Assembly: GCA_951406725.2 (NCBI GenBank)
Contig: OX597821.1
Location: 73,408,001-73,472,000, forward strand
Origin: Octopus vulgaris
Taxonomy: Eukaryota
Direction of reading: 5' to 3'
Length of the DNA: 64,000 nt
Shown piece after piece: positions 49,270 to 63,202 of this stretch; within the stretch, counting starts at the first letter, position 1, and each line of letters opens with the position of its first letter. Below the pieces are notes generated by a model. That model searched no databases, was not told the DNA's origin, and worked only from the letters and a program-made list of their open reading frames with translations. Both the position numbers and the translations under genes were made by a program.

Positions 49270-50550
49270 CTTTCATATTTCGGCACGAGGCCAGCAATTT
49301 TGGGAAGGCGATAAGTTTACATTGACCCCAGTGCGTAACTAGTACTTATTTCATTGACTCTGAAAAGATGAACAAAATCAACTTCAGCCAAATTTGAACT
49401 CAGACAGAATGCCACTGTTTTAACCAGCGTGCTAACGGTTCTCCTACCTTGACATTAATAATGATAATAACTACTTGAGTTTTATAGTATAATAATAATA
49501 ATAAGGGTTTCAGATTTTGCAACAAGGGCCACAATTTTGGGAGAGGGGATTAGTTAATTACATCGACCCCCAGTATTTCACTGTTACTTAATTTATCCAC
49601 CTTGAAAGGATGAAAGGTAAAGTCGAACCTGATGGAATTTGATCTCAGAACGTAATGGCAGACGAAATACTGCTAAGCATTTCGCCCAGCGTGCTGACGT
49701 TTCTTATTTCTTTATTGCCCACGTAGAGGAGACAAACAAGGACAGACAAACGGATTAAGTTGATTATATCGATCCTAGTGTGAAACTGGTACTTATTTAA
49801 TCGACCCCGAAAGGATGAAAGGCAAAGTTGACTTCAGAATTTGAACTCAGAACATGACGGCAGACGAAATACCGCTTAGCATTTCGCCCGGTGTGCTAAC
49901 ATTTCTGCCGGCACCCCGCCTTGACGATTCTGCCAGCTCATCACCTTTATAATAATAATAATAATATCCTTTTCTACTACAGACACAAGGTCTGAAATTT
50001 GTGGAGAGAGGACCAATTGATTACATCAACCCCAGTATGCAACTGGTACTAAATTTATCAACCTGAAAGGATGAAATGCAAAGTCGACCTTGACAGAATT
50101 TGAACTTGGAGCGTAAAGATGGATGAAATATCGCTAAGCATTTTGTCCAACATGCTAACGATTTTGCCAGCTTGCTGCCTTAATGATAATTATAATTTTT
50201 ACTACTGGAGGCACAAGGCATCAAATTTTCTGGGAGGGGACTAGTTGATTACATCGACCCCAATTCATGACTGGTACTTATTTAATCGACCCCGAAAGGA
50301 AGAAAGGCAAAGTCGACCTCGGAATTTGAATTCGGAACGTAGCAGCAGATGAAATACTTATTTCTTTATTGCCCACAAGGGGCTAAACGTAGAAGGGACA
50401 GACAAACGGATTAAGTCGATTACATCGACCCCAGTGCATAACTGGTACTTAATTTATCGACCCTGAAAGGATGAAAGGCAAAGTCGACCTCGGTGGAAGA
50501 TGAAATACTGCTAAGCATTTTGTCTGGTGTGCTAATGATTTTGCTATGTA
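49270..50550 (-). repeat. Cluster of about seven same-orientation SINE copies, partly nested, separated by (AAT)n
   Basis: Repeated CATCGACCCCAG...CTGGTACTTA...GAAAGGATGAAAGGCAAAGTCGACC...GAATTTGAACTCAG. Confidence 0.8.
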
Positions 50551-52905
50551 AGGACAAACACAGGACGGAAAGTATAAAGGGTTTTGTGAAAAAGAAAAGT
50601 CCGTGTAAACATATGATAACAGTGAAAAATATAACAATTAGAAAGAACTCCCAATAGGGGGAGGTGCTTTGAAAGGTTACTCGTGGAAAAAACCTATAAA
50701 AGCCATGGGAGCCTGGTCAAACGAGGAGAGAGCCCTTTCAACTTTTATATTCCACCTTTCACCCACCTTTCAATAAATTTTAATAATAATAATGGTTTCT
50801 AATTTTGGCACAAGGCCAGCAGCTGTGCAGTGAGGGGGTTGGTCAGTCCTATTGACCCTAGTTTTTATGAAGGCGGGTGAGGGAAAATGGTGGGGACATC
50901 AACCCTTTTGGGATTCACATTACTCTGTCAAATGTAATGCTGCTTTCTTCATATTGCTTAGAATAAATCCTGCATTATCTTGTAGCTTTGAGGCTGGCAT
51001 GGGCTGGATGGTTTGACTGAGGACTGGCAAGCCAGCAGGCTGTACCATGCTCCAATCTGATCTGGCAATGTTTCTACAACTGGATACCCTTCCTAACGCC
51101 AACCACTCTGAGAGAGTATTGGGTGCTTTTTACGTGCCAGTGGCACAAGAGCCAGTCAGGTGCCACTGGCATTGACCATGCTCGAATAGTGCTTTGTACA
51201 TGCCACCAACACAGGGAGCCAGTCAGATGGCACTGGAATTGACCATGCTTGAATGGTGCTTTTTATGTGCTACCAGCACAGGAGCCAGTCAGGCAGCACT
51301 GAATGGGGCCAATTTCAATGTTAAAAGGGCTAAATGGTTTGTGATAATTTGTAAAAAAAACCTTTTCATTTCAGTTTCAAATCCTGTCAACATCAATTTT
51401 GCTTTTTATCCTCCAGGGACTGATATATGAAGTACTGGATCAGTTTCACCAATATCTCTTTCTCTCTCTCCCTCTTCTAAACTTTGTGGATGTGTCTCAT
51501 TAGTATAAATCAATATTCATCACCACCACCATCATCATCATCATCATCTTCCTCCTCATTTGTCTGCTTTCCTTGCTGTCATGGGTTGGATGCTTTGACA
51601 AGTAAAAGCAAGCTGCAGGGCTGTGTTGAGCTCTGGTGTTGTTAATCTCATTTTAAAAATGGCTAAGATGGCATAGTTAGAATATTGGAAGAAATCAATT
51701 ACATTATTTAGTTTGTTCCTCATGGTTTTGAGTTAAAATCTTCACAGGGTTACCTGTGTGTGAGGGTGTTTGATAAATACCAGTAATCTCTTGGGGGAGG
51801 TTGATGAAATCAACTTGCCATGTTCAGCAGTTGGTCTCCTCTGTAAGTAACGAATCATTATTTCTGGTCTCAGGAGAAAACAAATATTAAAGAGAAAAAT
51901 ATATTAATAGAGTGAAAATTTTAATTACATGAATGTTATTATTAATTATACAAAAATATATTTATATTACTTTTAATTTATACATTTTAAAATTATTTTA
52001 ATTAATTTGAAATATTGTTTTTAATTATAACAGTCATTTCTTTTTTTTCCAAATTTAATTACTTAGAGATACTTTCTCTGCTGTTAGCTCGAGTTATCTG
52101 GTAGGGTTAACACTGGGGATATGCTAATTTGGGATAATTAACAAAATGAACCCTAATTTGTTAAAGTACACAGATGATGGAAAATGCTTCCAAGAAAGTA
52201 AAGGTAGGGGAGTGAGGTGGGTGGGGGTAGTGTCAGTTGTTCTTGGTCATTTTCCCTTTGTTGTTGTTGTAGTCAATATTGGTCAAGCCGGTCTATGCCC
52301 AAAAATAATACAGCCATGACCCATTTTTTTTGGCGGGGGGGTATTTATAGAATTTATTATATCGTGGATTTTCTTAACCCTGTCACACCAATATTCCCAC
52401 TATAGCGGGAAGAATTTAAACATTATCTCTGCTGGAATTTTGGTAAAGAAGTAATGAGCAACATGTAGAAATAGAAGCAGCAGCTGACTCTATCTGTCTT
52501 TCCGTTGGCCGATTCCGTCCGTTGGTTAGCTACCGATTCTGTCCGTTGGTCAGCTGCCGATTCTGTCCACTCATGAGCTGTGTTTGCAACTATTTATTTT
52601 GGGGCTCAGAAGCCCAGGTGGAGAATAAAGTTAGACATAGTGCTCCAGGTTTGAGAATGTTAAAATTGTAGGGTGTGTGTGTGTGTGTGATTTGAGTGGT
52701 ATTTGGCTGCTATTTCTAGCAATTTAAGAAGCCATCTAGAGGCTCCCTTATTGGTTTGTTTGTAACAGGAAATGAAATGGTTTCTAGCAGACATGATCAA
52801 AGAATTAAATTGTGGGACAAAGAAACAGTCTGAGAATTATCTGAGAAATACAAAGTTAGAAAGGAATTGGTTGTCAGTCTGGAATATGTCAGGAACACTA
52901 AAAGA

Positions 52906-53625
52906 CTGTTTTGCATATGTGAATTACAGGGTTTGTCATGCCCGGAGTCCAACTTTGATAGAAATAAGCATTCTTGACTGCTATTTCTATTTTTTCGGTA
53001 TGCGGTCAAGCAACCTGTTTGCCTGTCCCTTTTTCTTATATACAATATATATACTGAACTTTACAGAAGTTCCTGCCGGTAATCGGCTATATTTACATAC
53101 CGAATTCTACCAGTAAATAATTGGGGTTTTTTTAAAAGCCTTTATAGAAATTATTTACTCCTATTATTATATTACTATTTGGATTTTTCACTCCATTATG
53201 ACAACCTAATTGTTCCCCATCTTAGGGAACTATTTTTGTAATGCGCATGGCAAAATTTTGGAGGGAAGATTTACGAATTCAAACGTCTATGTAGGTTTAG
53301 CTTTTGCTCACTTTCTTCAAATATTTTGATGTCGCATGGTCAGAAGGTTTGAGGTACGTAGCATTTGATAAATCTATGATAAATCTTTTTCAATGGAAAG
53401 CTGTGCTGAAGAAGGATGTGAAATATATATGCAATGTATATGAAATATATATCAAAAATATATATGGAATATATATTCAATATGTTTATAATCCAGAAAC
53501 ATGATGTTCACAGATAACCGCCAGACCTCGTATTCGTTATCTATTCCTTCTGTTTTGCATATGTGAATTACAGGGTTTGTCATGCCCGGAGTCCAACTTT
53601 GATAGAAATAAGCATTCTTGACTGC

Positions 53626-53634
<9 letters not shown>
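52906..53634. repeat. Identical 85-bp direct repeats (52906-52990, 53550-53634) flanking about 560 bp, followed by (TA)n
   Basis: Direct comparison; each repeat ends in the hairpin atagaaata...tatttctat. Confidence 0.85.
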
Positions 53635-53698
<64 letters not shown>

Positions 53699-54959
53699 TA
53701 ATACTAAAACTCTAGGGATGTTTGTATGTATTCGAAATATTTCAGAAACGGTATATTTTATCTTAGTTTTTTTTGCATATTTATTTTCATTCTTGACTTC
53801 GGCAGTGCAGTACAAATTTTTGTGATATTTGGACCTCTATTATTGAGATGAAAAGGATTAAACACAATTTTTGTTTGTTATTTCTTGACAAAAAAATAAC
53901 ATGGCTTCTGTGACATCAACACACATACAAAATACACACAAATATAATGAATTCATAGCATGTCAATCAACACAAACACCCATCTACTATCTGTGACATA
54001 TACACACACACATAGTCTTTGCATCTCTAAGACAAAAAGAAAGTTGACTTTTTGTTGTACACAATATTTTTATTATTTAGAAATATTTAAAACTGAATGT
54101 GATTTCAAAAATGTAAGTTGTTTGTACAGTCGGTATTTATATTTTAGCTTTTTTTAAACAGACAATATTTTAATGTCTGGAGTTCATTAATTTCCATTAA
54201 AAAATTTTGTTTTAAAGTGAAAAAGAGGAGAAAATGAAAGATGTATGAACTTGTATATGAAATGGATGTGTGTGTGTGTGTGAAAGAAGGAAAGAGAAAG
54301 AGAGAGTGAGTGAAGGGGTGTGTTGTTGTATATGTACATACATTATATGTACATACATCAATACATATGCGTACATCTTTTTTGTGTGTACATGTGAGAG
54401 AGAGAGAAAGTGAGTGAATGAGTGTGTGTGTTTTCATGTGTAAGTGGCTCTCTCTCTCTCTCTCTCTCACACACACATCCTTTTCATATACAAATTTATA
54501 CATCTTTCACTTTCTTCTCTCTTTCACTTTAAAATAAAAGTAAATAAAATTTTTTTTACGGAAATTAAGGAACAAAACCAGCTGGTCCGGATGACAGTTC
54601 TGAGAGTTAAAGTGAAAGATTGCCCCAAGGGAATACCATTACAAAACTTTTTTCAACTGCATTCAGCATATCTCAGCTCCAAAGATTTGGCTGCTATTTC
54701 TAGCATGCCCTGCTACCACGTGACAGCTATTTGTGATAAAAGACCCAAAATACCTGTTACGTGGTAGCAGGGCGTGCAAGAAATAGCAGCCGAATCTTTC
54801 TTTTTCTGGGGAAAGGAACCATTTACGCATGATTTTGATGTCACATTCGTTGAAAGCATGTGAAATAACCTGGAAAAGAAAAAAAAAGCCCATGAAATAA
54901 AACTCCATTGCTGGGAAATTCAGACTTTTCAGGTGACCCAATAGGTCGGAGGTAGTCTA

Positions 54960-55222
54960 GTATATATACGTCATCAGGGACTTGTACTCTTTGAGCCTTG
55001 TTGCAAAACCTAATGGAATTGCTTTTCCATATGGCGTTCAACTTCATCATGGCAGCAGAGGCTAAATTGGGTCTTGTTGTTATCTGTTTGCGAGAGTTGC
55101 TATCCTTGGTCAAAGTGGACCCTAAGTACTTGAAGGTGTCCACTTCATCGAGTTTCTCTCCATTCAGCATGTTGCTGGTTGCTGTGCTCTGGTTGTTCTC
55201 CCTCATTGACCATGCATGGGAA
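54960..55222 (-). pseudogene. RTE-like LINE fragment
   Basis: LNGEKLDEVDTFKYLGSTLTKD...KLNAIWKS. Confidence 0.75.
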
Positions 55223-56804
55223 AGCTCCTGTGCTGGTGGCATGTAAAAAGCACCATCCAAATGTGGTCGATGCCAGGTCCGCCTGACTGGCTCCTGTGCT
55301 GGTGGCATGTAAAAAGCACCATCCAAATGTGGTCGATGCCAGGTCCGCCTGACTGGCTCCTGTGCTGGTGGCACATAAAAGCACCCATTACACTCTCGGA
55401 GTGATTGGTATTAGGAAGGGCATCCAGCTGTAGAAAACCATGCCAAATCAGACTTATCAGCTTATCAGCCCTGGTCATGTTGTCCAACATGGACAACAGA
55501 CGTTAAATGATGAGATATATATGAGAGAGAGAGACTGCTCATAAAAGTGACGGTGGGTACTGACTAGCACCACTATTGCTAGAAATAACAGTTAAAACAT
55601 TTTGAAAGCCACAAAAGCACTGTACTTAATGACTGACAAAGGGAGGTAAGTCCCCGGTGTATATAGCCGGATTGAATGATTTCGGATTTTGATGTACACC
55701 ATCTTAATCCTCATGAGCGACGCTTAACGCTAAAGGCAGTCATGAGCCACCAGGGGAATTGTATTCGACCAGGCATATCATCATCATCATCCTCATTTCC
55801 ATGCATGGGTCAGACAGAATTTGTTTTGGCAGATTTCCCACAGCTGGACGCTCTCCCTGTTGCCAACCCTCCCCTGTTTCCAAGCAAGGTAAGAGTATAT
55901 ATTTCATCTGCAAGGACATGTGTCGTTCTGACCATAACAAGGTTGCATGGGGCCAGTTCTAATTGTGAGCTTTTCCTTTAGTAGACCTGCATGCTTTGCT
56001 TAGAGGGAGCGGTGTGGGGTTGAGACCTAAGTTTGTCTCTGATTAATACCGTATATGACATTATGGTAGAGTCATGATGGCTATGGAAAACGTCTGCACT
56101 ATTATATTCTTTTGCATTTTATAATAGAATTATATGTCATGAAGTCTCAAACCCTTTTCATCATCATCATTGTTTAACGTCCGTTTTCCATGCTGGCATG
56201 GGTCGGACAATTTGACTGAGGTCTGGCGAACCAGATGGCCACACCAAGCTCCAATCTTGATCTGGCAGAGTTTCTACAGCTGGATGCCCTTCCTAAAACC
56301 AACCACTCCGAGAGTGTAGTGGGTGCTTCTACGTGTCACTGGCACAAGGGCCAGTCAGGCAGTACTGGCAACGGCCACGCTCAAATAGTGCTTTTTATGT
56401 GCCACCTGCACAGGAGCTAGTCCAGCAGCACTGGCAACAACCTCACTTGAATGTTTTTTCACGTGCCACCAGCACAAGTGCTAGTAAGGCGACGCAGGTA
56501 ATGATCATGCTCGTTACCTGTGTCACCTTTTGACATTTATGATGGTTCTGTTCTGCTATATTTCAGACCTGTTGGAATAGAGTATCTGATACCAGATGCT
56601 GTATATATAATGGAATAACAGATGTACTTGTACTAATAATTCATATTAGCTTAATATGATGAGTATACATGTGCTTCCTCCCCAATCCTTTCCTTCCATG
56701 ACCCTCTCAAGTCAAAACTCATATTACCACTAATGGTAACCATTAGCTCCAGGCTCACCATATTCTTGTGGGTGGATTTGGAAGAAGGAAACTGAAAGAA
56801 GCCT

Positions 56805-56853
<49 letters not shown>

Positions 56854-56982
56854 TAAAAAGAATTCCAACCTTGTCTGATTTTCACGTTTTATTTACAATC
56901 TTATAATGATATATTATAAGATAATATATTATAATTGAATAAAATAAAGTGAAATAGTAGAATGTTAAATATTCATTCTGAT

Positions 56983-57027
56983 TGAACTAGTACTTTCATG
57001 CATTGAATTCTGCAATCTTCGGGTTCA
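56983..57027 (-). ncRNA. Minimal hammerhead ribozyme in the PLE terminal repeat
   Basis: tgaac CCGAAGA t tgca gaattcaa tgca t GAAA gtac UA gttca; palindromic AGUACU stem III; U4C core variant. Confidence 0.75.
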
Positions 57028-57090
57028 TGTAGTAGTGTTGACAGTCATGCTTCACAATTTTTGACTGTAGCAAGATGAGTGATTCTGTGC

Positions 57091-57204
57091 TATAAATACA
57101 GCTGGGTAGGCTCCAGAGTGCTAGGTTTTGCAAACTGTATTCTGACCAATCAGTGTGTAGTATCACTCAATTACTTAAGCTGATTGGTTGGTTGAGCTGA
57201 TTGG
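57091..57204 (-). promoter_or_regulatory. Putative Pol II promoter in the PLE repeat: three CCAAT boxes and TATTTATA (TATAAATA on +); second copy at 61362-61475
   Basis: ATTGG at 57183 and 57200, CCAAT at 57146, TATA-like at 57091-57098, about 65 nt upstream of the hammerhead. Confidence 0.5.
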
Positions 57205-57521
57205 TTTAGGCATCACGCTTTGTTGGACAGGTCAAGAGTCCTGTATCTTGACCCTGGCCGAAGCAGCAATTGTTGGGTTATTTTTAGAAATGTTGTAAAT
57301 ATCCTTTGTCAGAGATTTTTATATTTTTATATTTCAATTGTCATCATCATCATTGTCAGCACCTTAATTATTGTTGCTAGTGGTGATGGTGGTGGCAATA
57401 GAACTTTTAACCCTAAATAAGATAATTTTCCTGCTATCTTCGTCTTGATCACCTTTAGTATTGTTGTTGTTGTTAGTGGTCATGGTCGTAGCAGTGGAAG
57501 TAATACCTCTAAGTATTATTA

Positions 57522-59849
57522 TTATTGCTTATTTAGCTTGGGTTCGAATTTATCAATAAAATTCTTTTCTCTGATTTTCCTCTCGATTTCACTTGGGCTG
57601 TGTAATTTGTAGAATGGAAATATTATATATATTTTCCGACCACATGTTGCTAGGTGGTTACTCAAAGGTATCTGACGGACCTCTGGGTCTCTAATCTGTT
57701 GCCGGTGTACACGTGAGCGTTCTAATAGTGCGTTTCCCGTCTGACCTACATATATTTCTTCACAATTTGGGCATTTGATGCAGTAAATTAAATTTCTGCT
57801 TTTGCAGTTCATATTCGCGTTTGTGAATATTTTCCCGGTTTTTGTGTTTATATATTGACCGGTATGTATGAATTGGCATGTGCCACATCGGCTATCATTG
57901 CATTTAGATACCGTGAATGTTTGGTCTTTGTTGCTGAGGTCAAATTTTGCCTTTGTTAGTAATGTTTTCAAGTTTTTAGGCTGTCTTTTACTAAGCACCA
58001 TAGCTCGATCCTTGATTATGTCTTTTAATTCATTACTTTGGGCAATGATTGGTAGGTTTGCTTTGGCAATGTTGAAGATATTCTGGTGACATGGGTTGTG
58101 TGTCACTATGAATGGTATGACTTGTTCTTGTTTTCCTCTTCCTTGGGTTGTCCTAAGTTGTTGTATAGGTATTTTTATAGCCCGCTGTATGCCATTTTCT
58201 ATAAGTAGAGATGGGTATTTTTGTTTGAGCAAAAATTCTCTTAGTTCTATTAGGCGTTTGTTCCTGATATTTGCATCTTCTACAATAGTACAAATTCTTC
58301 TGGCTAGGCAGTATGGGATGTTACGTTTTGTATGTGGTGGATGGCACGACTTAAAATTTAGGTATTGATGTGTGTCTGTGTGTTTATAGTATATATCTGT
58401 GGTGATGGTGGTGTCTTTTTTAATTACCATTATATCCAGGAATGGTAATTTGGTACTACTCATCTCCTTTGTAAATTTGAGAGATGGGTGTAGGTTGTTC
58501 AGGAGGATATTGAACTCTTCCAGAGTATTTAGAGATTCTGTCCAGATTATGAAACAGTCGTCTAGGTATCTCTTCCATGCCTTTTCAATATACTTTCTAA
58601 ATCCAGTGCCATAGTTTACCTCCACCTCTTGGTAGAGTTGTTCTTCTAAGTATCCCATTACAGAGTTGGCGTAAACGGGAGCAAACCTCGTTCCCATCGC
58701 CGTGCCTCTAATTTGGATGTAATTCTTTCCATTGAAGAAGAATGTGTTATTTTCTAGAATAAGTTTGACTGTGTCTAATATAAATGGCACTGTGAATCTG
58801 CTGGGAATCACTTCTCTATGTTTTTCTAACCAGTATTTAATCGCCTTTATTCCTAAATCGTGTGGAATATTGGTGTAGAGGCTTACCCCATCAAAACTTA
58901 GTAAAACTGAATTTGTTTCTGTTGTTTTGGGAAGATGGGACAGGAAGTCGATGTCATCCCTGATGAAACTTGGTATGTAAGTACATAGTGGTTTCAAAAC
59001 AATGTCAATAAAATTGCTTAGACGGTGTGTAGGGCATGCTGGACCAGCTATAATAGGTCTAAGTTTTAGGTCTTTTGGATGTAATAATTTTATGTACTCA
59101 CTTTCTTGTTCTTTTACTGCCTGTTGAATGTTTTTTGATTTGTGTATTTTTGGTAAGCCGTAGAAGTTGCTGGGTTTTGGTTCAAAATTGGTGATGTAGT
59201 CTTTTTCATTATCCGTAAGTGAGTTGTGGTGTGTTGAAATCAGGTTGTTGATCTTTTTCATGATGTGGTGGTCTATATTTGCGGGTATTTCACAATAGAA
59301 GGTTGTATCCTTCAGTTGGTCTTCAACCAAATCCTTATAGTATTCGGTATCCATAATAACAATTGCACCACCTTTATCTGCTTGTTTAATTATTATTGTT
59401 TGATCGTTTTGTATACGTTTACATGCAGACATCTCTGATTTGCTAATGTTTGGCCTAACATTGGTATTGCGTCTAAGGGGAAATTTAGACAGGATATCAA
59501 TGTATTGGTCAAGGTAGTTATTTCTTCCTTTTGGTGGGGTGAAATTTGATTTATTCCTTACTAGGGATTCATCAATCTCATTACTTTTGTTAGCGAAGAA
59601 TTCTACAAGTCGTAATTTTCGACAGAATTTTTGGATATCCTCCTTTAATTCTTGGTGGTTGGCTGTTGGTGTAGGTGTGAATTTCAGTCCTTTTGACAGA
59701 AGTTGGATTTCATCATTGTCAAGATCTCTTTTTGATAAATTAATTATTTTAGGATCTATACGTTCAGTTGTTTGGGGTATGTTTCCTCTTGGATTTTTTC
59801 TTTCTCCGGTGTTTGTTGTCCTGACGTAAAAAAATGGATTTTTTTCTGG
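57522..59849 (-). CDS. PLE reverse transcriptase, Zn-finger linker and GIY-YIG endonuclease; frame open 139 codons upstream of the first ATG (59432)
   Basis: IINLS...LLSKGLKFTPTP, ADKGG, YGLPKIHK, LRPII, SLYTNIP, GTAMGT, RYLDD, LPFLD, CNDSRCGTC, NLIYCIKCPNCEEIYVGQT, R...H, E...N. Confidence 0.95.
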   Translation of the reverse strand, partial: PEKNPFFYVRTTNTGERKNPRGNIPQTTERIDPKIINLSKRDLDNDEIQLLSKGLKFTPTPTANHQELKEDIQKFCRKLRLVEFFANKSNEIDESLVRNKSNFTPPKGRNNYLDQYIDILSKFPLRRNTNVRPNISKSEMSACKRIQNDQTIIIKQADKGGAIVIMDTEYYKDLVEDQLKDTTFYCEIPANIDHHIMKKINNLISTHHNSLTDNEKDYITNFEPKPSNFYGLPKIHKSKNIQQAVKEQESEYIKLLHPKDLKLRPIIAGPACPTHRLSNFIDIVLKPLCTYIPSFIRDDIDFLSHLPKTTETNSVLLSFDGVSLYTNIPHDLGIKAIKYWLEKHREVIPSRFTVPFILDTVKLILENNTFFFNGKNYIQIRGTAMGTRFAPVYANSVMGYLEEQLYQEVEVNYGTGFRKYIEKAWKRYLDDCFIIWTESLNTLEEFNILLNNLHPSLKFTKEMSSTKLPFLDIMVIKKDTTITTDIYYKHTDTHQYLNFKSCHPPHTKRNIPYCLARRICTIVEDANIRNKRLIELREFLLKQKYPSLLIENGIQRAIKIPIQQLRTTQGRGKQEQVIPFIVTHNPCHQNIFNIAKANLPIIAQSNELKDIIKDRAMVLSKRQPKNLKTLLTKAKFDLSNKDQTFTVSKCNDSRCGTCQFIHTGQYINTKTGKIFTNANMNCKSRNLIYCIKCPNCEEIYVGQTGNALLERSRVHRQQIRDPEVRQIPLSNHLATCGRKIYIIFPFYKLHSPSEIERKIREKNFIDKFEPKLNKQ

Positions 59850-61048
59850 TTATGATTTATATTCCTGTTGATGTTTGCTTGATGAATTTTGCGTTTTGGT
59901 TGTGGTACTTTACTTGGTTTCGTTATGTTTTCTGTCTTGTTTTTGGTATTATGTATGCTACTTTTCAATTTCTTGTTAGCATTGTTTTTAACCACCTGGA
60001 GAAATGATCTGGGTTTACTTCTAGATCTAGATCGGTTTTTTGTCCAGTTTCTTGTGGGTAATCTCTGTTGAGGTCTTGAAAATGATCTCCTGTTATTTCT
60101 ACTGCTAATGGTCTGTTCAAAACAATATCTATTTTGTTTGTGCTTTTTGTTCATGTTGTGTGCATTAGGGTGTTTGCATACAAAATGGGAAGAGTTCTTA
60201 CCGTAGTTCGTCTTCGATTCGTGGTGAAACGGGTGTTCATGTTGCCACGTGTTCTGGTGTATGTTGCGTTGGTGAGGTTGTCCACTTTTAATGCTATTTC
60301 TCGGAGTTCTGGTGTCTTTACCGTAATTTGTAGCATATTTGTCGAGAAATAATTGTTTCCGCTGCCAAAACTTTCTTGATCTGCTTTCTTCTTTTGAGAT
60401 ATCTCTGATCCATAGTTCTCGCATTTTTTCTGCTATATTGCCGGTCGTTAGTTTGGATATTTCATCTCTGATTTGATCATCGATAGCTTCGTATTTGGCT
60501 TTGTAGCGGGATTGTTTAGACAGGGTAATGGAGATGTCGGTCCTGAATTTTATCAAACTAAGGTCCCATCGAAGTTTAGTTTCTTCCTCTGGTTCTCCTG
60601 CAATTTCTTTAATTAGGTACTTCCGAGGAAGTATGGGTGCCGCTAAAGATATCCATTTCGAATGTATTTCAGCATATTTTTCGCATTTATATGCCTTCCA
60701 GAAGTTTTGTTTTCTTATGTTAAGGAGTTTTTTCCATGTCTTCTGTATCTCTTCTCTTTTTCGGTGTGCCTCTTTTTCCAGATTTCTTTCGTTTATTTCT
60801 GACATCCAAGGAGGTTGTGGTAGGCTTTCTCTTGTAGATTTTATAATTGTTGGTATCATTTCAGCTAAATTCTTAATTTCAGAGTTTATGTGTTCATTTC
60901 CAAGTTTTCCGTCTGTAGACTGTTTTTCTATTTCCTTTAAAATAGAGGATTGTGTGTCAATCATCGTGATGAGTGTTGATAATTTCGATGAAATTTCCAT
61001 TAGAATTCTTTCGGATTCTGTTAATTTTGTTTGTTGCTTTCCAGACAT
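59756..61048 (-). CDS. PLE upstream ORF1, 430 aa: helical/coiled-coil-like N-terminal half, basic N/K/RS-rich C-terminal half
   Basis: Uninterrupted ATG-started ORF (gccaacATG) inside the repeat unit, overlapping the RT frame by about 94 nt. Confidence 0.8.
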   Translation of the reverse strand: MSGKQQTKLTESERILMEISSKLSTLITMIDTQSSILKEIEKQSTDGKLGNEHINSEIKNLAEMIPTIIKSTRESLPQPPWMSEINERNLEKEAHRKREEIQKTWKKLLNIRKQNFWKAYKCEKYAEIHSKWISLAAPILPRKYLIKEIAGEPEEETKLRWDLSLIKFRTDISITLSKQSRYKAKYEAIDDQIRDEISKLTTGNIAEKMRELWIRDISKEESRSRKFWQRKQLFLDKYATNYGKDTRTPRNSIKSGQPHQRNIHQNTWQHEHPFHHESKTNYGKNSSHFVCKHPNAHNMNKKHKQNRYCFEQTISSRNNRRSFSRPQQRLPTRNWTKNRSRSRSKPRSFLQVVKNNANKKLKSSIHNTKNKTENITKPSKVPQPKRKIHQANINRNINHNQKKIHFFTSGQQTPEKEKIQEETYPKQLNV

Positions 61049-61253
61049 GTTGGCATATACACAATAGGAATATAGATATATATATATATGGGTGTGTGTG
61101 ATTGTGTATAGAAGAATATATTAATAAAAAGAATTCCAACCTTGTCTGATTTTCACGTTTTATTTACAATCTTATAATGATATATTATAAGATAATATAT
61201 TATAATTGAATAAAATAAAGTGAAATAGTAGAATGTTAAATATTCATTCTGAT

Positions 61254-61298
61254 TGAACTAGTACTTTCATGCATTGAATTCTGCAATCTTCGGGTTCA
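61254..61298 (-). ncRNA. Second copy of the PLE hammerhead, about 200 nt upstream of ORF1
   Basis: Identical to 56983-57027. Confidence 0.75.
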
Positions 61299-61792
61299 TG
61301 TAGTAGTGTTGACAGTCATGCTTCACAATTTTTGACTGTAGCAAGATGAGTGATTCTGTGCTATAAATACAGCTGGGTAGGCTCCAGAGTGCTAGGTTTT
61401 GCAAACTGTATTCTGACCAATCAGTGTGTAGTATCACTCAATTACTTAAGCTGATTGGTTGGTTGAGCTGATTGGTTTAGGCATCACGCTTTGTTGGACA
61501 GGTCAAGAGTCCTGTATCTTGACCCTGGCCGAAGCAGCAATTGTTGGGTTATTTTTAGAAATGTTGTAAATATCCTTTGTCAGAGATTTTTATATTTTTA
61601 TATTTCAATTGTCATCATCATCATTGTCAGCACCTTAATTATTGTTGCTAGTGGTGATGGTGGTGGCAATAGAACTTTTAACCCTAAATAAGATAATTTT
61701 CCTGCTATCTTCGTCTTGATCACCTTTAGTATTGTTGTTGTTGTTAGTGGTCATGGTCGTAGCAGTGGAAGTAATACCTCTAAGTATTATTA

Positions 61793-62900
61793 TTATTGCT
61801 TATTTAGCTTGGGTTCGAATTTATCAATAAAATTCTTTTCTCTGATTTTCCTCTCGATTTCACTTGGGCTGTGTAATTTGTAGAATGGAAATATTATATA
61901 TATTTTCCGACCACATGTTGCTAGGTGGTTACTCAAAGGTATCTGACGGACCTCTGGGTCTCTAATCTGTTGCCGGTGTACACGTGAGCGTTCTAATAGT
62001 GCGTTTCCCGTCTGACCTACATATATTTCTTCACAATTTGGGCATTTGATGCAGTAAATTAAATTTCTGCTTTTGCAGTTCATATTCGCGTTTGTGAATA
62101 TTTTCCCGGTTTTTGTGTTTATATATTGACCGGTATGTATGAATTGGCATGTGCCACATCGGCTATCATTGCATTTAGATACCGTGAATGTTTGGTCTTT
62201 GTTGCTGAGGTCAAATTTTGCCTTTGTTAGTAATGTTTTCAAGTTTTTAGGCTGTCTTTTACTAAGCACCATAGCTCGATCCTTGATTATGTCTTTTAAT
62301 TCATTACTTTGGGCAATGATTGGTAGGTTTGCTTTGGCAATGTTGAAGATATTCTGGTGACATGGGTTGTGTGTCACTATGAATGGTATGACTTGTTCTT
62401 GTTTTCCTCTTCCTTGGGTTGTCCTAAGTTGTTGTATAGGTATTTTTATAGCCCGCTGTATGCCATTTTCTATAAGTAGAGATGGGTATTTTTGTTTGAG
62501 CAAAAATTCTCTTAGTTCTATTAGGCGTTTGTTCCTGATATTTGCATCTTCTACAATAGTACAAATTCTTCTGGCTAGGCAGTATGGGATGTTACGTTTT
62601 GTATGTGGTGGATGGCACGACTTAAAATTTAGGTATTGATGTGTGTCTGTGTGTTTATAGTATATATCTGTGGTGATGGTGGTGTCTTTTTTAATTACCA
62701 TTATATCCAGGAATGGTAATTTGGTACTACTCATCTCCTTTGTAAATTTGAGAGATGGGTGTAGGTTGTTCAGGAGGATATTGAACTCTTCCAGAGTATT
62801 TAGAGATTCTGTCCAGATTATGAAACAGTCGTCTAGGTATCTCTTCCATGCCTTTTCAATATACTTTCTAAATCCAGTGCCATAGTTTACCTCCACCTCT
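61793..62900 (-). pseudogene. 5'-truncated duplicate of the RT C-terminal half and GIY-YIG
   Basis: Translation matches the last 367 aa of the 57522 ORF; breaks at a (TA)n junction. Confidence 0.92.
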
Positions 62901-63202
62901 ATATATATATATATATTGTCATCATCGTTTAATGTCCACCTTCATGCTGGCATGGGTTGGATGGTTTGACAGAAGCTGGCCAGGTAGAAAACTACCCCAG
63001 GCTACTGTTTCCTTCCTGGCATGGTTTTTGTGGCCAGATGCCCTTCCTGACACCAACCACTTTGTTGAGTGGACCAATCATAGATGTAAAACAAAAGTGT
63101 TTGAGAGTTCATATTGTATAACGTCTGTATTAGAATTGGATCTTGAAGCACATATAAAGTTATGAATAATGGCATTTGAATATTGGCTTGGAAACCCCTT
63201 TT

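Follow-up and report, generated by a model that had tools for sequence, protein, structure and literature searches.

Penelope-like elements (PLEs) that carry an endonuclease (EN+) are the sister group of telomerase reverse transcriptases (RTs). The endonuclease-less (EN-) Athena and Terminon PLEs have two open reading frames (ORFs), with a coiled-coil-like ORF1 and a frameshift. Canonical EN+ PLEs are described as having a single ORF (PMC4209133, PMC6515669, and the available parts of PMC8557442 and PMC6431247). Among PLEs a long linker spacer marks Neptune, the spacer being short in Nematis and absent in Penelope and Poseidon, and the Neptune clade is itself paraphyletic (Craig et al. 2021, PMC8557442, same parts). 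Extra ORFs in Neptune elements are already in print: the available text on a killifish Neptune reports an unexplained upstream ORF and makes no mention of a frameshift there (PMC12602865), and the accessible part of a second study mentions esterases in Neptune-like PLEs, likewise leaving frameshifting unmentioned (PMC5408684). The legend of Fig. 1 in Craig et al. 2021 (part of PMC8557442) allows for PLEs in which a frameshift, together with a pseudoknot, sets ORF1 apart. No account of a programmed frameshift in EN+ PLEs came up in our literature search, and a prior description may exist. Here we analyse a stretch of 64,000 nucleotides (nt) of the Octopus vulgaris genome (contig OX597821.1, positions 73,408,001 to 73,472,000; hereafter the window), which holds an EN+ PLE whose ORF1 and RT-GIY-YIG frame (ORF2) overlap. 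Programmed -1 ribosomal frameshifting probably joins the two into a predicted fusion of about 1175 amino acids (aa).

By its motifs the element fits an EN+ Neptune-type PLE. Like the Neptune clade (available parts of PMC8557442), it combines an RT with a C-terminal GIY-YIG domain bearing Cys and His residues and a CX2-5CxxC linker with a long spacer, and it shares the EN+ hallmarks of partial tandem insertion with a pseudo-long terminal repeat (pLTR) and 5' truncation as well as (TA)n targets. The Neptune label of the initial annotation is consistent with a C-x4-C-x2-C linker motif followed by a 23-residue spacer to the next Cys, which by eye is like the Neptune rows and unlike the Nematis and Poseidon rows of the Craig 2021 supplement; our own tree held unnamed loci only. 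The CCHH feature of EN+ PLEs is present as well (IYCIKCPNC at residue 688, His 715 and His 732). The element differs from the Neptune clade in its two ORFs, which overlap in -1, and in that no hammerhead was found near the 3' end (no Rfam match up to E 1, which variant cores could escape; CTGANGA is absent from the sense strand and occurs once antisense, inside the RT and without a GAAA partner). Where the printed EN+ description has a single ORF, two are found in 180 of 191 copies of the window family. A coiled-coil-like ORF1 separated from the RT by a frameshift recalls the two-ORF frameshift PLEs; unlike the EN- Athena and Terminon elements among them, the window element has an endonuclease, and no pseudoknot was found in it.

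At the junction ORF1 reads ...CAG AAA AAA ATC CAT TTT TTT ACG..., and re-reading the sequence upheld the initial annotation in placing the U7 run (59828-59834) in phase X_XXY_YYZ of the ORF1 frame. The frame relation it gave also stands: the RT frame is -1 relative to ORF1, opens at 59849 after a TAA, and reaches its first AUG at codon 140, after the conserved IINLS and GLKFTPTP motifs. The ORF1 frame contains just two strict heptamers, and the overlap includes one of them. Most ribosomes would terminate at the ORF1 TAG and yield the 430-aa ORF1 protein, and a minority would slip back one base on U_UUU_UUU; the product of such a slip was computed as 407 + 768 = 1175 aa, in keeping with the roughly 1170 aa estimated before. 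With most ribosomes stopping at the TAG, frameshifting would set a gag/pol-like ratio. Of the two homopolymers singled out at the outset, the U-run is conserved across relatives and the A7 is not; as a slip site the A7 was rejected, being in the wrong phase and unconserved.

The initial annotation had held a 1-nt homopolymer indel to be an equally good cause of the frame break. Junction copies were counted with patterns of free run length, which are unbiased in this respect. They gave 190 matches, 95 of the first 100 being exactly A7/T7; with one longer copy found outside this set, 180 of 191 copies have the wild-type length, 10 carry +1, one carries +2 and none is shorter. All 40 full-length scored matches are identical over 59600-60000, a biased set in that they are the best-ranked of 374 candidates. 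Contigs from organism A (four of four runs, four studies) and from organisms B and C together (four of four runs, two studies) bridge the junction with no gaps; one of these contig sets may share the window's source. Given the constant length in 180 of 191 copies and the gap-free contigs of all three organisms, the indel explanation does not hold. The family is very young, with about 190 copies, and the 30 other fetched loci are 99.2-100% identical to the window unit. Two of the 11 longer copies lie in small indel-riddled contigs, and the +1 copies fall into four kinds and do not form one clade, shared diagnostic changes occurring only in a four-copy set with an extra G before the A7 (three loci, two haplotype backgrounds). 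Length changes at A7/T7 (59845-59828) comprise ten +1 and no deletions, and those at a nearby A6 (59799-59794) are balanced; background indels in the downstream half of the overlap number seven +1, one +2, seven -1 and two -2.

The arrangement extends far beyond this family. The comparison covered the best 80 of 403 metagenome loci, 58 loci that had been misfiled among prokaryote assemblies, the first 30 of 617 other-family loci from the same genome, and the window. An anchor motif was present in 71 of these 169 loci, forming 47 clusters at 85% identity. Among the 71, an overlapping upstream frame of at least 190 aa lies in -1 in 19 loci and in +1 in one. Upstream of the RT motif, 21 clusters have a T6 in the exact slippery phase, two have one only out of phase, one has T11 and 23 have none; the 23 are for the most part single-ORF elements whose N-terminus is extended in frame. 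By source, an in-phase T6 occurs in 10 of 13 own-genome clusters and in 11 of 34 others, none of which has only an out-of-phase T6. The heptamer in the 21 in-phase clusters is U_UUU_UUA in 16, ends in UUG in three and UUC in one, and in UUU in the window. This is not what RT coding sequence gives by itself: T6 starts number 6 per 19,476 nt in RT bodies, where 55% of Phe codons are TTT and two of 12 Phe-Phe pairs are spelled TTTTTT. A quick tree of 36 rows (11 of the 47 clusters were dropped as shorter than 200 aa) places an in-phase U6 in nine of nine rows of the window's clade (SH-like approximate likelihood-ratio test, SH-aLRT, 99) and in three of four rows (U_UUA_AAC in the remaining one) of a second, distant GIY-YIG-bearing clade whose ORF1 is different and esterase-like; a clade of 14 rows without the linker motif has one, and a 5-row single-ORF group none. 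Families with otherwise dissimilar overlap sequences thus retain the -1 overlap and the in-phase U6, and most families lack an RT-frame AUG upstream of the conserved motif. Since frame, phase and nucleotide identity of the U-run are what tandem -1 slippage requires, their conservation argues for programmed -1 frameshifting and, together with the constancy among copies, favours the gag/pol-like control proposed at the outset. The predicted two-ORF frameshift arrangement is clade-wide and not peculiar to the window copy.

Several loci from this comparison deserve separate mention. In the distant clade (L077, L078, L086, L094) a long ORF1 ends in an 'IIGDSN' stretch, which we take to be SGNH/GDSL-like, and overlaps in -1 with U6A or U_UUA_AAC; GIY-YIG is present in L077 and L086. 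L128 has a 363-aa ORF1 in a -1 overlap with G_GGU_UUU and C_CCA_AAC. Animal PLE sequences also turn up in bacterial genome bins (L122-L179) and as symbiont proteins (P0007, P0009, P0066, P0092), evidently through host contamination.

Protein homologues give a matching picture. The 120 best of 609 RT-EN homologues, which share the window's Pfam set (PLE-type RT and C-terminal GIY-YIG), are all at most 803 aa long with up to 1357 aa allowed, and most start at the same motif. The nearest named ones are bivalve; no relatives were found among viral contigs. ORF1 has 423 homologue clusters, and 94 of the best 150 are at least 300 aa long. In 74 of these 94 the last 60 residues contain the pair that U_UUU_UUR encodes in frame 0 (Phe-Leu in 71, Phe-Phe in 3), compared with 12 and 22 in upstream control windows and 13 (maximum 23) in shuffles. 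RT motifs appear in only one of the best 150 ORF1 homologues, a partial predicted Mytilus protein that is likely a gene-model join, since it keeps the FL tail and lacks IINLS. No long fused ORF1 homologue was found except P0123, itself without an RT motif, in a search that was weak by the tool's own warning. Four ORF1 homologues (P0245, P0217, P0239, P0189) have FL-less tails with N-F or Y-F, the Phe standing 11 residues before the end; a heptamer such as A_AAU_UUU would have its A-site codon at equal spacing.

A close known parallel is the gag-pol site of HIV-1 (human immunodeficiency virus type 1), U_UUU_UUA with a stem-loop (available parts of PMC4373837 and PMC3458567). Most relatives share its heptamer, its G-starting next codon and its structural-to-enzyme layout. 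They differ in being non-viral host elements without a conserved stem-loop, and in conserving the spacing to the ORF1 stop instead. Classical -1 signals have a stimulatory stem-loop or pseudoknot 5-9 nt downstream. As already noted in the initial annotation, there is no strong hairpin here: the 78-146 nt downstream of the window site are no more stably folded than shuffled sequence (z -0.1 to -0.8). A simple H-type scan, which covers local rather than long-range pairings, found no pseudoknot candidate in the window, and no conserved 3' stem-loop or pseudoknot was found over 21 sites, for which z averages -0.12. For want of a conserved 3' RNA structure, the frameshift rate is probably low; a bare U6A gives 4-6% frameshifting in reticulocyte lysate (PMC3458567, available part).

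This lack of a conserved structure is one of several points that weigh against frameshifting. The families are related, so the counts given above are not independent events. Twenty further hand-picked own-genome loci have a T6 in phase in eight cases, only out of phase in six and none in six; most have short upstream frames and are likely decayed. L071 has the heptamer and a stop 7 codons into the RT frame, and the single-ORF element L134 has an in-phase U6C without evident need for it. Cis-selection of fused copies was considered and gained no clear support, since these +1 copies show no clear excess relative to background indels. Finally, in 13 of 20 families an AG directly follows the U6, and the first AG shares one RT phase in 15 of 20; in the window a CAG comes 8 nt after the U6, again in that phase.

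The AG pattern makes splicing the main rival and a serious one. The U-run (TTTTTTAG in relatives, TTTTTTTACGTCAG in the window) would then serve a 3' splice site as its polypyrimidine tract, and the RT frame would be spliced to a 5' exon or to part of ORF1; the literature does describe PLEs that carry and retain introns. On the other side, the adjacent AG is absent in seven of the 20 families and the first AG is in another phase in five, and the FL/FF of 23 of the 74 ORF1 tails is followed by a residue whose codon cannot begin with G. Where a G-starting codon does follow U6A, the same is conserved at the HIV-1 site (PMC4373837, in part). A phase-2 donor would also be needed; GTAA, GTGA or GTAG in that phase is an ORF1 stop, and none of 18 ORF1 frames holds a consensus-like phase-2 donor. 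Splicing moreover leaves unexplained why the ORF1 frame is fixed through the tract (19 versus 1) and stops at least 9-10 codons later. Among sequencing runs that contain the stretch, none is recorded as RNA. Four guessed-RNA contig sets list no splice joint into the RT frame, which we do not count as evidence, as contigs lose rare forms, 61 loose ends fall outside the listing and 61061-61104 is masked; the sole GT..AG joint in these sets, 59509-59606, is antisense and minor. Taken together, these points make splicing unlikely.

Separate translation of ORF2, whether from a shorter transcript or by reinitiation or internal initiation at a near-cognate codon or the AUG of codon 140, is very unlikely. 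An RT-frame AUG does lie near the motif in L044, L187, L200, L077 and L086, and the window has CUG codons at 59699 and 59687. Yet AUG140 and the CUGs fall after or within the conserved IINLS and GLKFTPTP, the AUGs are scattered and missing from most families, and the in-phase U6 is left unexplained. RNA polymerase slippage on A7/U7, adding a base to some transcripts and so creating one fused ORF, seems to us highly improbable. It could account for the one-sided length changes at A7/T7 (+1 in 10 of 191 copies and no -1; in a post hoc Fisher test, 9:0 differs from the 6:7 of the nearby A6 with p 0.017), but +1 events are equally frequent at this control A6, the A-run is unconserved, and the conserved run is just six U's, always in codon phase, which slippage does not need. 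That the assembly is in error, or that the family is defective and relies on a single-ORF master for mobilisation in trans, is largely refuted and has next to no probability left: PLEs can mobilise in trans and 10 fused copies exist, but the layout is common to 180 of 191 copies, to independent contigs, to two other organisms and to many distant families, both ORFs are intact, and the fused copies are scattered singletons or the four-copy set.

If programmed -1 frameshifting is the mechanism, the position of the ORF1 stop may offer a stimulator in place of RNA structure. The Phe of F[LF] is never fewer than 11 residues from the ORF1 end in the 74 tails and is exactly 12 away in 21 (22 by last match), which puts the heptamer at least 9 codons from the stop and exactly 10 in 21 of 74. 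A geometric null with the measured stop rate of 7-8% places about half of the distances below 11, with 6-8 tails in the fullest bin, and none of 20,000 simulations reproduced the observed distribution. The 10 residues between heptamer and ORF1 end share no sequence (1.1 of 10 identical). Among DNA families the spacing is 10 codons in six of 20 and shorter in none, and a C at +4 after the ORF1 stop occurs in four of the six ten-codon families and in none of the other 14 (small numbers, post hoc). Slippage at the HIV-1 site is possible with the post-heptamer codon in the A site (PMC4373837, available part); by analogy, the A-site codon in ten-codon families would be 30 nt from the ORF1 stop. Smith et al. 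2019 (PMC6815119, in the parts available) found with E. coli reporters that stalling of one ribosome at a stop made the next one behind it slip -1 more often, with an optimum at 9 codons, and eukaryotic ribosome queues at stops have a period of about 30 nt and favour +4 C (available parts of 10.1101/710491 and PMC7993997). The terminating ribosome in many relatives would stand one ribosome length ahead of the slip site, as in Smith et al. 2019, and would stimulate slippage of the trailing one; their case is engineered and bacterial, whereas the PLE case would be natural and eukaryotic, at 10-11 codons.

We therefore offer, tentatively and as a possibility we would not favour at present, that a large EN+ PLE clade uses structure-free -1 frameshifting on U6A, the roadblock being a ribosome that terminates 10 codons further downstream, at the stop of ORF1. 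The window family does not fit such spacing (23 codons, with 22-23 in close relatives) and would have lost or replaced the stop-codon roadblock. Other possible causes of the spacing floor are a cis element of 30 nt and a minimal length of the ORF1 tail. Separately, L196, L200, L206 and L209 share a 20-codon heptamer-to-stop spacing despite differing heptamer-to-motif distances, which could represent two ribosome lengths or stops created by Ile/Val codons of the RT motif.

The ORF1 protein has a conserved N-terminal region of about 240 aa, helical and coiled-coil-like, followed by a basic N/Q-rich tail. No Pfam domain was found in it; its top PDB match is a designed coiled coil (E 3e-4), and in the ESM Atlas the top score of 0.85 falls to unnamed mollusc and cnidarian clusters, a lead only. 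It is likely an RNA-binding, oligomerising particle protein. Compared with the in-frame N-terminal domain of single-ORF PLEs, ORF1 gives at best E 3e-4 with hmmsearch (25 sequences) and an hhalign probability below 1%. The ORF1 of L071 matches such N-terminal domains at E 2e-6, so that this domain would exist both fused and split. A short overlapping frame begins at an out-of-frame AUG (61056) that precedes the ORF1 start by 8 nt. Within the RT, the window copy carries a private change at position 58888 (codon 321) to Gly in the FDxVSLY motif, where 41 of 41 other loci have T; its RT may thus be impaired.

The features of the element are collected in Table 1. The partial-tandem junction is identical in nine loci (L001, L005, L006, L008, L012, L020, L023, L025, L028), and the upstream tandem copy is likely the promoter source of the unit. 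A TA-type microsatellite is the insertion target at both ends. Nearby lie a fragment of an RT like that of long interspersed nuclear elements (LINEs) with 66-bp repeats (54841-55410) and, flanking the element, dispersed short repeats in several copies and both orientations (50000-56500, 62940-63060).

Table 1. Features of the element and its ends, in window coordinates
Feature	Position	Strand	Remarks
Full-length unit, young Neptune-type PLE family	56836..61106	minus	4271 bp; 30 other loci and 191 junction copies
5'-truncated tandem copy upstream of the unit, forming the pLTR	61107..62900	minus	3' part of RT, EN, 3' untranslated region
(TA)n at outer end of tandem	62899..62916	none	opposite end: (TG)n(TA)n near 56809-56852
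ORF1, 430 aa	59756..61048	minus	ATG 61048 to TAG 59758-59756; 423 homologue clusters
ORF2, stop to stop, 775 codons	57522..59849	minus	PLE N-terminal motifs, RT, zinc-finger-like linker, GIY-YIG
ORF overlap, 94 nt	59756..59849	minus	RT frame -1 to ORF1
A7 run	59839..59845	minus	not in slippery phase in ORF1; unconserved in other families
Slippery heptamer U_UUU_UUU	59828..59834	minus	same position as U_UUU_UUA/G in relatives; likely -1 frameshift site
CAG 8 nt past U6	59821..59823	minus	possible 3' splice acceptor (rival reading)
ORF1 stop TAG	59756..59758	minus	23 codons past heptamer (10 in commonest class of relatives)
GLKFTPTP motif (codon 54)	59667..59690	minus	conserved; upstream of first RT-frame AUG
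First RT-frame AUG (codon 140)	59430..59432	minus	downstream of IINLS and GLKFTPTP
RT core, Pfam RVT_1	58524..58982	minus	residues 290-442; below gathering cut-off
C-x4-C-x2-C linker motif	57876..57902	minus	residues 650-658; Neptune/Nematis/Naiad type
GIY-YIG endonuclease (Pfam)	57531..57791	minus	residues 687-773; Cys pair between motifs, His 715/732

If the frameshift is real, hundreds of annotated RT-EN proteins would lack their true N-terminal third, an unannotated family of more than 400 ORF1 clusters would become a candidate particle protein, and reconstituted PLE retrotransposition would need the fusion. If the roadblock also proved true, these elements would provide a natural, collision-driven -1 frameshift in animals, with RT output tied to the ribosome load on ORF1. 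The conserved 10-codon spacing raises the question of whether eukaryotes use ribosome collisions at stop codons as a natural frameshift stimulator.

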